Below the pieces are notes generated by a model, which was not told where the DNA came from, made no database searches, and worked only from the letters and a program-made list of their open reading frames with translations. A program made the translations under genes and the position numbers. DNA of 47,495 nt from Patescibacteria group bacterium (lineage in GTDB: Bacteria; Patescibacteriota; Microgenomatia; UBA1400; PJMF01), in contig JBDTME010000001.1 of the NCBI GenBank assembly GCA_039934415.1, forward strand, positions 1 through 47,495, in the 5' to 3' direction. Within the stretch, counting starts at the first letter, position 1. Each line of letters opens with the position of its first letter. Positions 38,870 to 46,094 of the stretch are shown here, piece by piece.

Positions 38870-39397
38870 ATGATCAAACAACTTTCAACCAAGATTGTGT
38901 ATGAAAATCAGTGGATGCGTGTTCGAGAAGATACGGTTGAATTTCCTAATGAACATCAGGGAATTTATGGAGTTGTGGAAAAATCTGATTTTGCACTTAT
39001 CATTCCTTTCGATGGTGAACATTTTTATTTAGTCAGGCAGTATCGATACCCAATTCAACAATTTTCTCTTGAATTTCCTCAGGGAAAACATGAAGAGAGT
39101 GTGAAAATCTTCCCGCTTGATTTGGCGAAAGCTGAACTAAAAGAAGAGACGGGATTAGTTACTAAGAATATAAAGGAAATTGGTTTTCTTCATGAAGCAC
39201 CAGGTTATGCTAATCAAGGTTTTCACATTTTTCTTGCCACTGAGTTATCTCAACAGGGACAGAAACTAGATTTAACTGAAGAAGGGTTGGTAATTGTTAA
39301 ACTGAGTGTTTCGGAGTTTGAACAAATGATTAGAATCGGGGAAATTACAGATGCTCCGACGATTAGCGCCTATACTCTATTCAACCTTGTTATCTAG
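38870..39397 (+). CDS. Nudix hydrolase (ADP-ribose pyrophosphatase-like)
   Basis: QYRYP, EFPQG...AKAELKEETGL Nudix box and ITDAPTI. Confidence 0.9.
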   Translation: MIKQLSTKIVYENQWMRVREDTVEFPNEHQGIYGVVEKSDFALIIPFDGEHFYLVRQYRYPIQQFSLEFPQGKHEESVKIFPLDLAKAELKEETGLVTKNIKEIGFLHEAPGYANQGFHIFLATELSQQGQKLDLTEEGLVIVKLSVSEFEQMIRIGEITDAPTISAYTLFNLVI

Positions 39398-40163: not shown

Positions 40164-41423
40164 TTACCCTATTTTTTCCTTTCCCATGAACTCTCTCAGA
40201 ACTGCAGGGATTGTAATAGTGCCGTCTGCTTCCTGGTAGTTTTCAATAATAGCTCCGAGTAAACGAGGCGTCGCTGCTACGGTATTGTTTAAAGTGTATA
40301 CATACTTCAAACTGCCGTCTTTAGCTCGGTACCGAATATTGAGTCGTCGCGATTGAAAGTCATTGAAGTAACTGTCCGAATGGGTTTCACGATATGCATT
40401 TTGGCCTGCGAACCAAGTTTCGATATCATACTTTTTACGTTGGCCTGCTCCCATGTCACCTGTGCACATTAATAACACATGATACGGCAGATTGAGGGCT
40501 TGTAAAATTTCTTCAGCAAAGACGCGCATTTGGTCATGCATATTTCTGGTGACTTCTTCGTCTGCTACAGTGTAGACAACCTGTTCAATTTTTTGAAACT
40601 GATGAACACGGAAAAAACCCTGAGTATCTTTGCCGTAACTCCCAACTTCGCGGCGGAAACAAGGACTGATCCCTACCATTTTGATCGGAAGATCTTTCTC
40701 GTTTAGCGTTTCATCTTTGTAATATGCCGTCAGGGAAACTTCGGCTGTTCCAATTAATCCTTGATCATCTTGAGTGTGATAGTGATCTTCTTTCCCCCAA
40801 GGAAAGTAACCAGTTCCAGTTAAGGCTTCATAATTGACCATCCAAGGTACGGTCATGGGTGTAAAACCTTTGGCTATCATGTGCTTGAGAGCAAATTGTT
40901 GAACAGCCATTTCTAATAGTACGAGATCGTTTTTGAGGAAGTAAGCACGTCGACCGGCAATGCGAACCGCACGTTTAGAGTCGAACAGATCGAGGTCTTC
41001 TGCAAGTTCAGCATGAGTCTTTGGTTGAAAATCGAACTGACGCTTCTGTCCCCATTCAAATAATTCTTGATTGCCTGTTTCATCTTTACCAAATGGCACG
41101 TCATATGCTGCTGGGTTAGGAACTTGAAGCATCAAATCAGTAAAGGTCTCTTCTACATGCTTTAATTGCGGTTCTAAATCTTGCAATTGTTTTTTTAACT
41201 CTTTACCTTTATCAATTTGTTCTGGAGTGGGTTTCCCTTGTTGTTTAATAATTCCATTGTGTTCATTGCTCTGTTTCCGTAACTCTTCAACTTTAGTGAG
41301 CAGCTCGCGGCGTTCTTTATCAACTCGTAACACCTCATCCACAATTTGTGGATTAAATTGTTTTTGATCAATGGCAGTTTTGAGTTCATTCGCGTGTTCG
41401 CGAATATACTGAATATCTAACAT
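40164..41423 (-). CDS. serS: Seryl-tRNA synthetase
   Basis: N-terminal coiled coil, GTAEV, FRREVG..G.FRVHQF and TLNNTVAATPR; AAAGGAG SD. Confidence 0.97.
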   Translation of the reverse strand: MLDIQYIREHANELKTAIDQKQFNPQIVDEVLRVDKERRELLTKVEELRKQSNEHNGIIKQQGKPTPEQIDKGKELKKQLQDLEPQLKHVEETFTDLMLQVPNPAAYDVPFGKDETGNQELFEWGQKRQFDFQPKTHAELAEDLDLFDSKRAVRIAGRRAYFLKNDLVLLEMAVQQFALKHMIAKGFTPMTVPWMVNYEALTGTGYFPWGKEDHYHTQDDQGLIGTAEVSLTAYYKDETLNEKDLPIKMVGISPCFRREVGSYGKDTQGFFRVHQFQKIEQVVYTVADEEVTRNMHDQMRVFAEEILQALNLPYHVLLMCTGDMGAGQRKKYDIETWFAGQNAYRETHSDSYFNDFQSRRLNIRYRAKDGSLKYVYTLNNTVAATPRLLGAIIENYQEADGTITIPAVLREFMGKEKIG

Positions 41424-41439
41424 ACTTCTCCTTTATATA

Positions 41440-41609
41440 CTAAAAGACCCTCTTTCACTCACCATATCAATGATGAACGAAAGAGGGTCTTGGTAGACGG
41501 TACCACCTCAATTTTTTGCTTATCCTGCGATGACGGGCTTACCCGGCTCGATTATGACCTCGAACTGCATTGGTGAGGGCTAGTCACCTCAAACGCATGT
41601 GCTATATTA
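41440..41609 (-). ncRNA. T-box leader of serS with an apparently ultrashort Stem I
   Basis: Antiterminator GAGG-UGGUACC-GUCU...AGAC-CCUC (bulge 41499-41505); competing 13-bp stem 41479-41491/41444-41456; IIA/B block 41527-41546; AGC in a hairpin loop at 41579-41581; TG-TATAAT at 41616-41621. Confidence 0.85.
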
Positions 41610-41637
41610 GATGAAATTATAACAATTTTTTTATAAT

Positions 41638-42048
41638 ATGTCTCAACCAATTGGTGCATGTATCTTAGTTTTTAATTCCAAAGGGCAGTTGCTTTTAGGG
41701 AAACGGTTAAATAGCTATAAAGCAGGCTATTTTGGATTTCCTGGAGGCAGAATTGAGGTCGGTGAACTTGTTTTAGATTGTGCAAAGAGAGAGTTAAAAG
41801 AAGAGACCGGTCTTTCTACAAAAGAAGTGAAGTATTTGGGTCTGGTCAAAGAGAATCAAGGTGATTACGACTTTATTCATTTTGTATGCAACGTTAACGT
41901 GGGTGATCAACAACCCATCTGTATCGAACCAGAAAAATGTGAGAATTGGGACTGGTTTGATCTAAATAAACTTCCTAAAGAAATACTTGAAGGGCATTTA
42001 GCAGCAATTAAATTATGGAAAGAGAAGAAAAATTTCATAGAGATTTAA
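41638..42048 (+). CDS. Nudix hydrolase (MutT/NUDT15-like)
   Basis: FPGGRIEVGELVLDCAKRELKEETGL box; EPEKCENWDWF. Confidence 0.92.
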   Translation: MSQPIGACILVFNSKGQLLLGKRLNSYKAGYFGFPGGRIEVGELVLDCAKRELKEETGLSTKEVKYLGLVKENQGDYDFIHFVCNVNVGDQQPICIEPEKCENWDWFDLNKLPKEILEGHLAAIKLWKEKKNFIEI

Positions 42049-42679: not shown

Positions 42680-43120
42680 CTAAGTAATAGAGTTTTGCAA
42701 TGTTTGTAATTCTTCTATCATTTCTAAAGAATACGGTAATCGATCAAGGTCTTTTATTTCATCAAATGTAAACCACTTATATGAATGTGTTTCTTGGTTT
42801 AATTTGATTTCTTTATTGTTCTTTACTAATTGACAGAGATATCCAATGAGTAAGGTATGTTCAGGAACTCCAGCTGTGTGATGCCATATGTGAGTTCTGA
42901 CAGATGGACATGGCAGAATAATCTTAATATCTTGACTTATTTCTTCCTGACATTCTCGTATCACTGTTTGTTCAGTTGTTTCTCCAAACTCTACTTTTCC
43001 TCCAGCAAGCTGCCATTTCAAATGAACTTCTGGCCATTGTGGCGAATATCGCTGAGTTAGCAAGTACTCGTGGTGGTCATTTTGAATCACAGCAACTACA
43101 ACGGGGACAAATCTATTCAT
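42680..43120 (-). CDS. Nudix hydrolase (MutT-like)
   Basis: WQLAGGKVEFGETTEQTVIRECQEE box. Confidence 0.9.
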   Translation of the reverse strand: MNRFVPVVVAVIQNDHHEYLLTQRYSPQWPEVHLKWQLAGGKVEFGETTEQTVIRECQEEISQDIKIILPCPSVRTHIWHHTAGVPEHTLLIGYLCQLVKNNKEIKLNQETHSYKWFTFDEIKDLDRLPYSLEMIEELQTLQNSIT

Positions 43121-43645: not shown

Positions 43646-44128
43646 TTATTCAGTAAGTGGGTTCAGTACTGCGTTAATAATATGTTTAAGAAAGGCACTT
43701 GCTGTCTGGATATTCATGACTGTATTTGACATTCGCAGGAAATTATCTATACCCTGTTCGTCTTGAGATTTTGCAAGTATTGTTTCAAGATCTTCTAGGC
43801 CTTCTTGATTTAAAATTACTTGAGCATAGTTTGGAGTTTGAAGACAAATAAAAAATTGCAAATAATACTCAGGTTTTCTCTGAAATTCAGTTTTTTCTTC
43901 TTGATTCAGAAATTTACTTACTTCTTGTATTAACGCTTCCTCTAAAATTAGTCTGGGAGGTAAAATGCAATCTGGGTTGATGGGTTTTTCCAGCTTACGA
44001 AATATCCTAGTTTCAGAATCCTTTATACTTCCGGGAAATATGATTATCTTTTGATTAAGTCTTTCAGCTGTCATATGCTTATCTGGCAATACCTTGTAAT
44101 TCGCAACCACCTCAATTTTCACCGTCAT
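43646..44128 (-). CDS. Hypothetical protein
   Basis: ORF overlaps the lysS stop; no motif recognised. Confidence 0.6.
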   Translation of the reverse strand: MTVKIEVVANYKVLPDKHMTAERLNQKIIIFPGSIKDSETRIFRKLEKPINPDCILPPRLILEEALIQEVSKFLNQEEKTEFQRKPEYYLQFFICLQTPNYAQVILNQEGLEDLETILAKSQDEQGIDNFLRMSNTVMNIQTASAFLKHIINAVLNPLTE

Positions 44129-45806
44129 TATGAACACTTTTTGTGTTCAATTCTCCAATTCTTTTTTGTCTTAACTGAGGATCTATGGATAATAGAAACC
44201 AGGCTGCTCTGGGTCCATGGTTTTTGCCCAGGAATGCTTGATAAATTGAAGTAAAGGCAAGCTTAGGGCCAATCGTTTTTTTGGCTATCTCGTACAATTG
44301 AGTTTGAAGATCAAGCTCTCTGTTTTGCCAGTTTTCTTTTTCAATTAGTTCAGTGGCTTCGCGCAGAAACTGTATTTGATCGGCAGAAAGTTTTTTTGCA
44401 GCATCTGGTAGTGTTTCTTTTGGTTTAAATTGAAACTCTTCATTTGCAAAGCGATCCAACCAAATTTGTGCATATTTCTGGCGACTTTCTAACTCTTCTA
44501 GTTCTGGTTTGGTCAAAGCAGAACCTTTTACCTCTGCAAATTTTTCTGGCAAGTTCATTTCTGGGTACTGCATCCAGATAGCAATGTCCCTGAAACGAGG
44601 CAGAAAATGCTGTGAGGGAATGGTATCGGTGTGTGCAAGTTCAAATGAGCGGGTCAGTTTGGCGTCGGATTCTGTAGTGCCCCAATAAGAATTAGCAGCT
44701 TGATCGAATTCATCGAATAAGTCAGGTATCGCCATAGAACGAGGGTCGAAGTCAATGACTTGACTGGAGACCCTGTTTACGAATAAAAAGCGACCTACCT
44801 CTTTTGGAAAAAGTTGAACAAACTCTCTTGCAGAAGTTCCTACACCTTTACTCGAACTCATTTTTGTCCCGCGAATCAGGATCCATTCGTATGGAATGTC
44901 AAAAGGAACAACTGACTGAAAGATTTTTTTAACCATTTCATTAGCCATGTCCCTAGATCCTCCTGCAGAAGTGTGATCTTTACCCGCACCTTCAACATTG
45001 ACACCCATGACTTGCCAGTGAGCTGGCCAATCCACTTTCCAGAGAAACTTGCCCGTTCCGCCAAATGGAGATATTTTACTTTGAAATCCACAGCCTTTAG
45101 CCCAGACCACCTTATTTTCCTGACATTCAAAAGTGACTTGTTCGCCGTCCCAATCTGTTGTGAGTGTCGTGCCAACTTTGCCGCATTGAGGGCAGATGAC
45201 CTGAAATGGGAACCATTTACGAGGCAGTTTGTACTGAGCAACTTCTTCGTATACTTTTTTCACCTCTTCTACATGATCGAGTACAAATCGAATAATTTCA
45301 TCCATTTTGCCACTTTCATACAGTTCATGGCTCCATACGATTTGAGGTGTTGCGCCTAAATCTTGAAATGCTTGTATGAAATCTTTGGCATAGAGTTCTG
45401 CGAAATTATTGAGTGCTTCATAGGCGTGTATTTCTTCTGGACTACTTTGTGAAAAATCAATTCCTGATTGAGCCAAGTTCGGTTTAGGTATTTTAAATAG
45501 TGGCACACCCATGTACTTCTGATATATATCTTGATCTAAGTATCCAGGTAGCGAGTCCATCGGGTCCATGTCATTAAAGACATACGTGCTTTCGAGTTTA
45601 GGTTCTGTTTTTCGTAGGGCTTGAGCGACAATGTCATGAATGAGAACACCTCTTAGAGCGCCAGTATGGACTCTTCCTGATGGTGTCTTCATGTCATCGA
45701 CGTGGAGATGTGTTACTTTTTTTGCTGTTTTCCACTCCATGATTGAGTCAACTACTTTATCAACCCAATGGACGCTGGTTTGTTCTGTGCTTTTTATATC
45801 TGACAT
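44112..45806 (-). CDS. lysS: Class I lysyl-tRNA synthetase
   Basis: TPSGRVHTGALR (HIGH-like), CPQCG Zn knuckle, WKVDWPAHW, GAGKDH and KMSSSKG; GGAG precedes ATG 45806. Confidence 0.96.
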   Translation of the reverse strand: MSDIKSTEQTSVHWVDKVVDSIMEWKTAKKVTHLHVDDMKTPSGRVHTGALRGVLIHDIVAQALRKTEPKLESTYVFNDMDPMDSLPGYLDQDIYQKYMGVPLFKIPKPNLAQSGIDFSQSSPEEIHAYEALNNFAELYAKDFIQAFQDLGATPQIVWSHELYESGKMDEIIRFVLDHVEEVKKVYEEVAQYKLPRKWFPFQVICPQCGKVGTTLTTDWDGEQVTFECQENKVVWAKGCGFQSKISPFGGTGKFLWKVDWPAHWQVMGVNVEGAGKDHTSAGGSRDMANEMVKKIFQSVVPFDIPYEWILIRGTKMSSSKGVGTSAREFVQLFPKEVGRFLFVNRVSSQVIDFDPRSMAIPDLFDEFDQAANSYWGTTESDAKLTRSFELAHTDTIPSQHFLPRFRDIAIWMQYPEMNLPEKFAEVKGSALTKPELEELESRQKYAQIWLDRFANEEFQFKPKETLPDAAKKLSADQIQFLREATELIEKENWQNRELDLQTQLYEIAKKTIGPKLAFTSIYQAFLGKNHGPRAAWFLLSIDPQLRQKRIGELNTKSVHNDGEN

Positions 45807-45825
45807 AAAAACTCCAATGTTGTAC

Positions 45826-46083
45826 AAAAAAACTCTCGTTTCAACTCAAGCAGTAGCTTAAGTGTATACGAGAGTCTTTCAACTCGGTACCATCGTAATT
45901 CGTCTCGCGTTAGCTCGACCTTCATGACGGCGATGACGGGCCTACCCGGACAACTCTACTTTTCTTGTTCAGAATTTCTTTTGTCAGCTCTAGAGTCTTT
46001 TCAATTCTTGATTAATCGACTCCTTTGCAACTTCAGCGGAGCTCTCTTAGCAATTTTTTCAAGAATCTACTTGTCTCTGTCAA
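45826..46083 (-). ncRNA. Canonical T-box riboswitch of lysS, specifier AAG
   Basis: Long Stem I with AGUA/GAA loop, AGAGA bulge and GCUGAA apical loop; AAG (45997-45999) then A; Stem II UGAA/AGUA; IIA/B; antiterminator CGA-UGGUACC-GAGU...ACUC-UCG (bulge 45886-45892); terminator ACTCTCGT/ACGAGAGT plus U tract. Confidence 0.92.
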
Positions 46084-46094
46084 TGCTTTTAGTC

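Follow-up and report, generated by a model that had tools for sequence, protein, structure and literature searches.

A reduced T-box leader with an ultrashort Stem I upstream of serS in a Patescibacteria genome, a predicted tRNA-Ser-responsive attenuator

How much of a T-box riboswitch can be dispensed with if the element is still to control transcription? T-boxes acting at this level are generally held to need a long Stem I with its motif for contacting the elbow of the tRNA, a part that has been called essential (PMC7583486). Leaders with an ultrashort Stem I have been described as translational and as mostly actinobacterial (PMC7583486); all of them are said to regulate ileS and to respond to tRNA-Ile (bioRxiv 10.1101/2023.02.28.530422), the same picture is given in PMC12990946, and the Stem II S-turn is reported to be essential when Stem I is ultrashort (PMC7913692). 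At the level of sequence, these review statements on the long Stem I and on ultrashort ileS leaders and their S-turn are contradicted by the leader considered here, which has about 30 covarying relatives. It occupies positions 41597-41442 on the minus strand, upstream of serS, in a stretch of 47,495 nucleotides (nt) from a Patescibacteria group bacterium (assembly GCA_039934415.1, contig JBDTME010000001.1, positions 1 to 47,495), which we refer to as the window. We propose, with a probability of roughly 0.8, that this leader is a T-box transcription attenuator of reduced form that responds to tRNA-Ser. Loci other than the window are designated by L numbers.

The serS leader and its elements

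A preliminary description of the window, made from its letters, had placed a T-box ahead of serS. The elements that it named lie where it put them, and the assignment is now backed by homology and by covariation among relatives. The leader and its surroundings comprise the following features.

41644-41616, minus strand: serS promoter, with a -35-like GAGACA (41644-41639), a 17-nt spacer and an extended -10 box TGtTATAAT (41624-41616)
41597-41566, minus strand: ultrashort Stem I hairpin UGCGUUUGAGGUGACUAGCCCUCACCAAUGCA, 32 nt
41597-41595 with 41568-41566, minus strand: Stem I basal helix, UGC with GCA, covarying
Within 41597-41566, minus strand: Stem I internal loop GUUUGA / AAU, resembling a GA motif
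41588-41584 with 41576-41572, minus strand: Stem I upper helix, GGUGA with UCACC, 5 base pairs (bp) in the comparative fold
41583-41577, minus strand: Stem I apical loop CUAGCCC, 7 nt
41581-41579, minus strand: specifier AGC (Ser), the predicted partner of the tRNA-Ser anticodon GCU
41565-41560 with 41551-41546, minus strand: Stem II, GUUCGA with UCGAGC, 6 bp, all six pairs covarying
41559-41552, minus strand: Stem II loop GGUCAUAA, 8 nt, purine-rich
41545-41542 with 41537-41534, minus strand: Stem IIA CGGGUAAGCCCG, CGGG with CCCG around the loop UAAG, almost invariant in the family
41536-41531, minus strand: F-box CCGUCA, part of the Stem IIA/B element
41530-41510, minus strand: linker, 21 nt, with the RAG purines as AAG (41521-41519)
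41509-41483, minus strand: antiterminator GAGG-UGGUACC-GUCU-ACCA-AGAC-CCUC, folding energy -6.0 kcal/mol
41509-41506 with 41486-41483, minus strand: antiterminator helix A1, GAGG with CCUC
41505-41499, minus strand: T-box bulge UGGUACC, 7 nt, between A1 and A2
41498-41495 with 41490-41487, minus strand: antiterminator helix A2, GUCU with AGAC, loop ACCA
41491-41444, minus strand: terminator hairpin, 22 bp, which uses the 3' strands of A2 and A1 (AGAC, CCUC)
41445-41442, minus strand: terminator U-tract UUUU, the first two U of which also pair at the stem base; AGUAUAU follows
41433-41427, minus strand: Shine-Dalgarno (SD) sequence AAAGGAG of serS, outside the terminator hairpin
40164-41423, minus strand: serS, ATG at 41423, 419 amino acids, Pfam Seryl_tRNA_N and tRNA-synt_2b
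41638-42048, plus strand: NUDIX gene, divergent from serS

The hairpin that had been described as 30 nt long is indeed present, with a length of 32 nt. As had been claimed, AGC lies in its apical loop in both possible folds, one thermodynamic with an 8-nt loop and one comparative with a 7-nt loop. The thermodynamic fold (GAGG/CCUC) was rejected as not conserved, L001 and other relatives permitting only the 5-bp stem with its 7-nt loop. When the relatives are aligned by MAFFT blind to structure, 96.8% of Stem I is paired and double changes are seen in all five of its pairs; the basal helix appears as AGC/GCU, UGC/GCA or AAC/GUU. The 5' strand of the stem base, GCGUUUGA, fits the Rfam T-box consensus GCGAUGA. 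On the 3' strand the window reads AAU-GCA and many relatives GA-GCU. A strict kink-turn at this base was considered and dropped, because the 5' G-A becomes A-A or U-A in relatives including L008 and L009. Pairing of UGCG (41597-41594) with CGCA (41527-41524) was likewise discarded, since only the partner proximal to Stem I covaries in L003, L032, L094, L127 and L160.

The predicted promoter puts this short hairpin first in the leader. The 214-nt gap between serS and the divergent NUDIX gene contains the leader, and a promoter scan finds 10 of 12 matches with the TG present. The transcription start site (TSS) is predicted near 41609, only about 12 nt before the base of Stem I and about 64 nt before Stem IIA begins (41545). 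In 24 of 28 Ser leaders, a -10 box that agrees with TATAAT at five or six of six positions, and usually includes TG, has its end 9-18 nt before the basal helix of Stem I begins; the other four have TATACT. The genes farther upstream vary among loci, and in L002 and L009 a terminator immediately precedes the leader promoter. Because the -10 position is conserved, there is no space for a long Stem I, which agrees with the ultrashort Stem I of the preliminary description and contradicts a far-upstream TSS with a full Stem I, one of the findings that it had named as fatal to its reading.

What the serS leader lacks was also largely anticipated. It has no AG bulge, no distal loop and no AGUA/GAA S-turn, and nothing corresponding to a long Stem I whose AG bulge and distal loop form the double T-loop platform that binds the elbow; the specifier-loop S-turn is missing as well. 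No S-turn was found in its Stem II, the loop of which has the consensus GGUNANAA or AGGAAAUG among Ser leaders. The Stem IIA/B element and F-box are recognizable by sequence (CGGGUAAGCCCGUCA, 41545-41531) and nearly invariant across the family. The columns of the IIA/B pseudoknot, being invariant, carry no covariation signal, and its pairing is putative. Folding of the 21-nt linker gives no stable hairpin that might serve as Stem III, and a hairpin is inserted in the linker of L001, L002, L012, L021 and L136. The linker purines, the role of which is described in PMC11297988, are conserved in the alignment as AAG or GAG.

The 3' half of the leader follows the usual T-box plan. Its antiterminator is canonical and competes with the terminator hairpin, as had been proposed; the two folds are mutually exclusive, at -6.0 versus -31.7 kcal/mol. 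The terminator core of 13 Watson-Crick pairs (41491-41479 with 41456-41444) had been described correctly, as had the free SD sequence, although the hairpin extends beyond that core to 22 pairs. Its stability (z-score -8.25) was equalled by none of 200 shuffled sequences. Counted from the basal helix through the 3' strand of A1 (41597-41483), the sensor is about 115 nt long.

Relatives, covariation and codon specificity

A collinear leader precedes serS in 24 of the 50 Patescibacteria genome loci with enough flanking sequence. Of these, 23 were found with a covariance model, R1, and one (L046) by eye; the same leader occurs at no fewer than six metagenomic serS loci among the matches listed. 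In the remaining serS genes, a TATAAT box stands immediately ahead of the start codon. Relatives of the encoded SerRS from species-representative genomes are all from metagenome-assembled genomes (MAGs) of Patescibacteria, also known as the Candidate Phyla Radiation (CPR), namely Microgenomates, Collierbacteria, Woesebacteria, Levybacteria, WWE3 and Saccharibacteria, with the top match 83% identical, which places the window in a Microgenomates-like CPR bacterium.

R1 was built from A2, a structure-blind MAFFT alignment of 19 leaders. Four helices are supported in A2, with 93.6% of cells paired and 14 of 18 pairs changed on both sides. None of 500 shuffles reached the observed values, and controls in which the pairing was slid gave at most 46% paired. 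R1 scores the window leader at 85.9 bits and recovers further leaders, including L006 and L056; in the alignment fitted to the model, 97.5% is paired. A covariation model of CPR serS leaders, one of the checks that the preliminary description had suggested, thus finds its leader with covarying helices. An antiterminator with covarying A1 and A2, mostly followed by a hairpin and five to eight U, was detected automatically in 20 of 31 leaders, and in several of the other 11 it can be seen by eye with a mismatch or bulge. With the general T-box model of Rfam, RF00230 (gathering threshold, 93 bits), the relatives L002, L045, L012 and L017 align over their whole length and score 30-45 bits; 71-76 positions in the upper part of Stem I are deleted, and Stem II is shortened. 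These alignments show the homology to the T-box and explain why these leaders have been missed in annotation. Finally, two copies of the motif CGGGNNNGCCCG-N15-45-TGGNACC are present in the window, where 0.00 would be expected, the second copy being the lysK leader discussed below. Sequence elements, T-box homology, helix covariation, the match of codon to gene and the mutually exclusive folds are all shown by the present analysis.

Specificity for serine is indicated by the apical loop. Every one of the 30 serS-linked leaders counted (24 from genomes and at least six from metagenomes among the matches listed) carries UCC or AGC there; the preliminary description had staked its reading on such conservation. 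Typical loops are CUUCCAA, CCUCCAA and CAUCCAA for the UCC type and CUAGCCC, CUAGCAC, UUAGCAG, UAAGCAA and UUAGCUA for the AGC type. Because UCC and AGC belong to unrelated codon boxes, Ser is the sole amino acid shared by all loops. Among the 12 loops of the AGC type, the A never changes, and AGC is followed by A, C or U. The codon usually takes loop positions 3-5, shifting to 4-6 in Pro leaders and in the Ser leaders of Saccharibacteria; the Ala leader has a 9-nt loop, with the codon one base before the 3' strand.

The T-box bulge varies in parallel. Among the matches listed, UGGN is always UGGU in Ile, Val, Pro and Ala leaders. Ser leaders mostly have UGGC, with UGGU in the window, L012, L017, L048 and L050, and some Trp and Asp leaders have UGGU too, which supports its earlier interpretation as a tolerated wobble variant. 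UGGU fits the discriminator bases of tRNAs for Ile, Val, Pro and Ala, and UGGC fits the G73 usual in tRNA-Ser. Across the family, the UGGN base appears to follow the expected tRNA discriminator.

The same short Stem I precedes other synthetase genes. A scan of metagenomes with the motif CGGGTAAGCCCG-N15-45-GGTGGNACC gave at least 120 loci, among them many leaders with this Stem I ahead of other synthetase genes, which were identified with NCBIfam and blastp. The loop codon matches the gene across eight amino acids including Ser; the other seven are given here, with locus numbers being those among the matches listed.

AUC: IleRS, at least 14 leaders
GUC: ValRS, L115 and L126
GAC: AspRS, L085, L086 and L178
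UGG: TrpRS, L062, L128 and L176
CGC: ArgRS, L148
CCU or CCC: ProRS, L089 and L065
GCC followed by G: AlaRS, L097, the one alaS leader

Among the matches listed, the S-turn signature AGAA...AGUAGA is found in all of the Ile and Val leaders and only there. Ser, Trp and Arg leaders lack it; in them Stem II forms a hairpin of 5-6 bp, the loop of which (GGUNANAA or AGGAAAUG) is rich in purines. This distribution fits the published proposal that weak, AU-rich codon-anticodon helices are buttressed by the S-turn, whereas GC-rich ones can do without it (PMC7583486, PMC7913692).

Two ideas of the preliminary description were not supported by this comparison. One was that the leader represents an independent minimal class. 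The scan also returned high-GC ileS leaders of the known translational type (L077, for example, with the loop CCAUCAC, a sequestrator containing the SD sequence and no U run), and their Stem I equals that of the window; the window Stem I is thus, judged by its sequence, of the known ultrashort kind and not an independent invention. The other was that truncation suits the long variable arm of tRNA-Ser. The same design serves tRNAs with short variable arms, and L074 is a serS T-box with a full-length Stem I, an AGAGA bulge, a GGUG distal loop, the specifier UCC and UGGC; a long variable arm is therefore neither necessary nor sufficient for truncation. A gene-specific reason for truncation in this genome is possible, since the window also contains a lysK T-box with a full-length Stem I.

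45839-46092, minus strand: lysK T-box, upstream of the open reading frame (ORF) 44112-45827, which encodes a class I LysRS (Pfam tRNA-synt_1f)

The lysK leader has, in addition, an AGAGA bulge, the specifier AAG, an S-turn Stem II, the bulge UGGUACC and a terminator, ACUCUCGU...ACGAGAGU, followed by U7. Its span of 45865-46092 scores 85.6 bits against RF00230, a full-length match just under 93, and so was missed by the default Rfam scan.

Several individual leaders deserve separate mention. The Saccharibacteria serS leader of L046 (about 1372-1500) has an ultrashort Stem I with AGC in its loop and neither Stem II nor IIA/B. It carries a hairpin resembling Stem III, and a U run of a terminator is not obvious; this layout is more reduced than that of the window leader and may serve to control translation. 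In L010 (1344-1500), a Ser leader without a terminator U run, the T-box domain reaches right up to the start codon of serS, and either the terminator may have disappeared or control may now work in another way. L021 (about 627-700) has two tandem hairpins ahead of Stem II with UCC in each apical loop (CCUCCAA, AUCCAAC), which could reflect duplication of the specifier hairpin. In L166 (8865-8977), a leader built in the same way precedes an AspRS-like gene, and its loop UCAACAA reads AAC (Asn) in the usual register; the gene could encode a nondiscriminating AspRS under the control of tRNA-Asn.

The surroundings of serS also vary. NUDIX hydrolase genes cluster near it in the window (38870-39397 and 41638-42048 on the plus strand, 42680-43120 on the minus strand), and in L006 (1050-1514) and L094 (5273-5725) the Ser T-box leader is separated from serS by a NUDIX gene, which would thereby be co-attenuated by tRNA-Ser. 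In L012 (1250-1486) and L017 (1275-1487), the Ser T-box terminator is followed, ahead of serS, by an ORF of 70-78 amino acids without a Pfam match. Patescibacteria-type SerRS genes and leaders in L001, L005, L008 and others come from MAG records titled 'uncultured Pseudomonadales bacterium', titles that look mislabelled.

Proposed mechanism and alternatives

The function of the window leader is read from its sequence, and the mechanism that we propose is as follows. Transcription would start about 10 nt upstream of the short Stem I, the 7-nt apical loop of which would offer AGC to the anticodon of tRNA-Ser(GCU) in the manner of two kissing anticodon-like loops. Stem IIA/B and the short Stem II with its purine loop probably organise or buttress this contact, and the conserved purine-rich loop might stand in for the S-turn. 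If the tRNA is uncharged, its 3' NCCA end would pair with the UGGU of the T-box bulge, stabilising the weak antiterminator (-6 kcal/mol), and RNA polymerase would go on into serS. With the tRNA charged or absent, the terminator of 22 bp (-32 kcal/mol) would form and transcription would stop before the SD sequence. We infer that tRNA binds in the absence of an elbow platform, an S-turn and a Stem III, what the Stem II loop does, and that termination and read-through take place.

Several observations weigh against attenuation by tRNA-Ser. The elbow-binding platform, the S-turn of Stem II and also Stem III, all regarded as important, are missing, and two base-paired contacts may not catch the tRNA fast enough during transcription. 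The window U-tract is just UUUU, among the weakest in the family and as weak as had been noted earlier, and may not terminate efficiently. The window codon is followed by C and not by a purine, and the GA motif shows AA on the 3' strand. The window UGGU would make a G-U wobble with the usual G73 of tRNA-Ser; a tRNA-Ser gene that could give the discriminator base was sought in the window and 59 loci and was not found. Lastly, the Rfam search that the preliminary description had suggested gave no match between RF00230 and the serS leader, either at the gathering threshold or at E<=10 in a 501-nt search.

One alternative is a decaying T-box that no longer responds to tRNA, with serS expressed constitutively or damped by a leaky hairpin. 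The window copy is sub-optimal in four places (the C after the codon, AA for GA, UGGU and just four U); the element is dispensable in the lineage, about half of the related serS genes being leaderless with TATAAT right before ATG; and L010 and L046 seem to have lost the terminator U run. Against this, all helices of the window leader are intact, it scores 85.9 bits against the family model, and its antiterminator is canonical; moreover, the variant with CC after AGC reappears in L136 and L006, and other Ser, Trp and Asp leaders combine UGGU with good terminators. We regard decay as unlikely. Slightly less likely still is a switch that acts after transcription, in which the 22-bp hairpin would set mRNA stability (as an RNase III substrate, for example) or ribosome access and be relieved by the tRNA-stabilised antiterminator. 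The weak U-tract running into AGUAUAU would fit such a switch, as would an unusually long and perfect hairpin ending 10 nt before the SD sequence and the translational mode of the known ultrashort class. Nevertheless, the SD sequence and start codon lie outside the hairpin, most relatives have a short GC-rich hairpin followed by five to eight U, as is typical of intrinsic terminators, and the nearest relatives with long hairpins (L001, L160, L167) have U5 to U7.

The remaining alternatives concern what is sensed and where the transcript begins. Read one base further 3', the loop would give GCC (Ala), and the ligand could also be other than tRNA-Ser. Two registers do exist in the family, codons of Pro, Ala and Saccharibacteria Ser leaders standing one base further 3'; AGC-N always contains GCN, and UGGU would suit A73 of tRNA-Ala. 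Yet the downstream gene is serS, orthologous leaders use UCC, the 12 AGC-type loops hold the A constant and let the base after AGC vary, and UGGC, present in most AGC-type relatives, suits G73 of tRNA-Ser but not A73. The one alaS leader (L097), for its part, uses GCC followed by G. The Ala register was rejected on the invariant A, UGGC, the UCC orthologues and the serS gene downstream, and a different specifier or ligand is very improbable. Least probable of all is a TSS far upstream, with a conventional long Stem I made from sequence inside or beyond the divergent NUDIX gene. The window TSS is placed by prediction only, which leaves room for this idea, but the similar position of the -10 box in 24 of 28 Ser leaders despite differing upstream genes, the terminators that directly precede the promoter in L002 and L009, the lack of AG-bulge and distal-loop motifs and the deletion of upper Stem I in the Rfam alignments of relatives all speak against it.

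Attenuation in response to tRNA-Ser accordingly remains our preferred reading of the window leader. A broader proposal, to which we give about even odds, is that a natural transcriptional T-box can sense tRNA by two base-paired contacts only, codon with anticodon and UGGN with NCCA, and without elbow platform, S-turn or Stem III, within a broad, unannotated group with an ultrashort Stem I that covers at least eight amino acids and occurs in Patescibacteria and on metagenomic contigs. If this is true, the long Stem I for fast co-transcriptional capture and the S-turn for ultrashort Stem I are not general needs. A functional sensor of about 115 nt would be useful as a minimal scaffold in structural studies and in the engineering of tRNA sensors, and would raise the question of how the kinetic competition with RNA polymerase is met without elbow contact. 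Patescibacteria have very small genomes and few known regulators, and because the standard Rfam model misses such leaders, T-box regulation is under-annotated in them.

Comparison with known T-boxes

Full-text literature searches returned no T-box from CPR, Patescibacteria or Saccharibacteria, though a prior description elsewhere is possible. In TBDB, the class II model is applied only to Actinobacteria and to class I matches with a truncated Stem I. The canonical T-boxes (RF00230; tyrS and serS of Bacillus; lysK of the window; L074) share with the serS leader the pairing of specifier with anticodon and of NCCA with UGGN, the competition of antiterminator with terminator, a Stem I base that in the serS leader resembles their GA motif, the F-box, the RAG purines and an aminoacyl-tRNA synthetase as target. 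They differ in their longer Stem I, about 90-100 nt, where the specifier occupies an internal loop and an AG bulge and a distal loop stack against the elbow of the tRNA, and in having an S-turn Stem II and a Stem III; the serS leader lacks all of these.

The glyQS T-box, the minimal canonical class, is transcriptional like the window leader and has been reduced in the opposite way. It lacks Stem II and IIA/B and keeps the long Stem I platform and Stem III, whereas the window leader keeps IIA/B and has lost the platform and Stem III. Set beside glyQS, the leaders found here that read comparatively GC-rich codons (AGC, UCC, UGG, CGC) likewise do without the S-turn, while those that read AUC or GUC keep it. 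The glyQS and ileS constructs for which tRNA complexes have been solved measure 169 nt and 167 nt, respectively (PMC12990946), compared with about 115 nt for the window sensor.

The closest likeness is to the ultrashort ileS T-boxes, exemplified by those of M. smegmatis, M. tuberculosis and N. farcinica (PMC7583486, bioRxiv 10.1101/2023.02.28.530422, PMC12990946). Both have a short hairpin as Stem I with the specifier in its terminal loop, no elbow platform, a Stem IIA/B and a UGGNACC bulge that reads the tRNA 3' end, and the F-box CCGUCA of the window leader is identical to that quoted for N. farcinica in PMC7583486. With the high-GC ileS leaders of our scan, the window leader further shares a base like a GA motif, a stem of about 5 bp and a 7-nt loop with the codon at positions 3-5. 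Beyond Stem I the two diverge. The ultrashort ileS class is described as actinobacterial, translational and restricted to ileS, with an SD sequestrator, a Stem II S-turn needed for tRNA binding, and a Stem III; the window leader, from Patescibacteria, serves serS with AGC, has a 6-bp Stem II with neither S-turn nor Stem III, and ends in a hairpin of the intrinsic-terminator type that leaves the SD sequence free. What looks new, on present sequence comparisons, is the combination of an ultrashort Stem I with a terminator and serS, without S-turn or Stem III.

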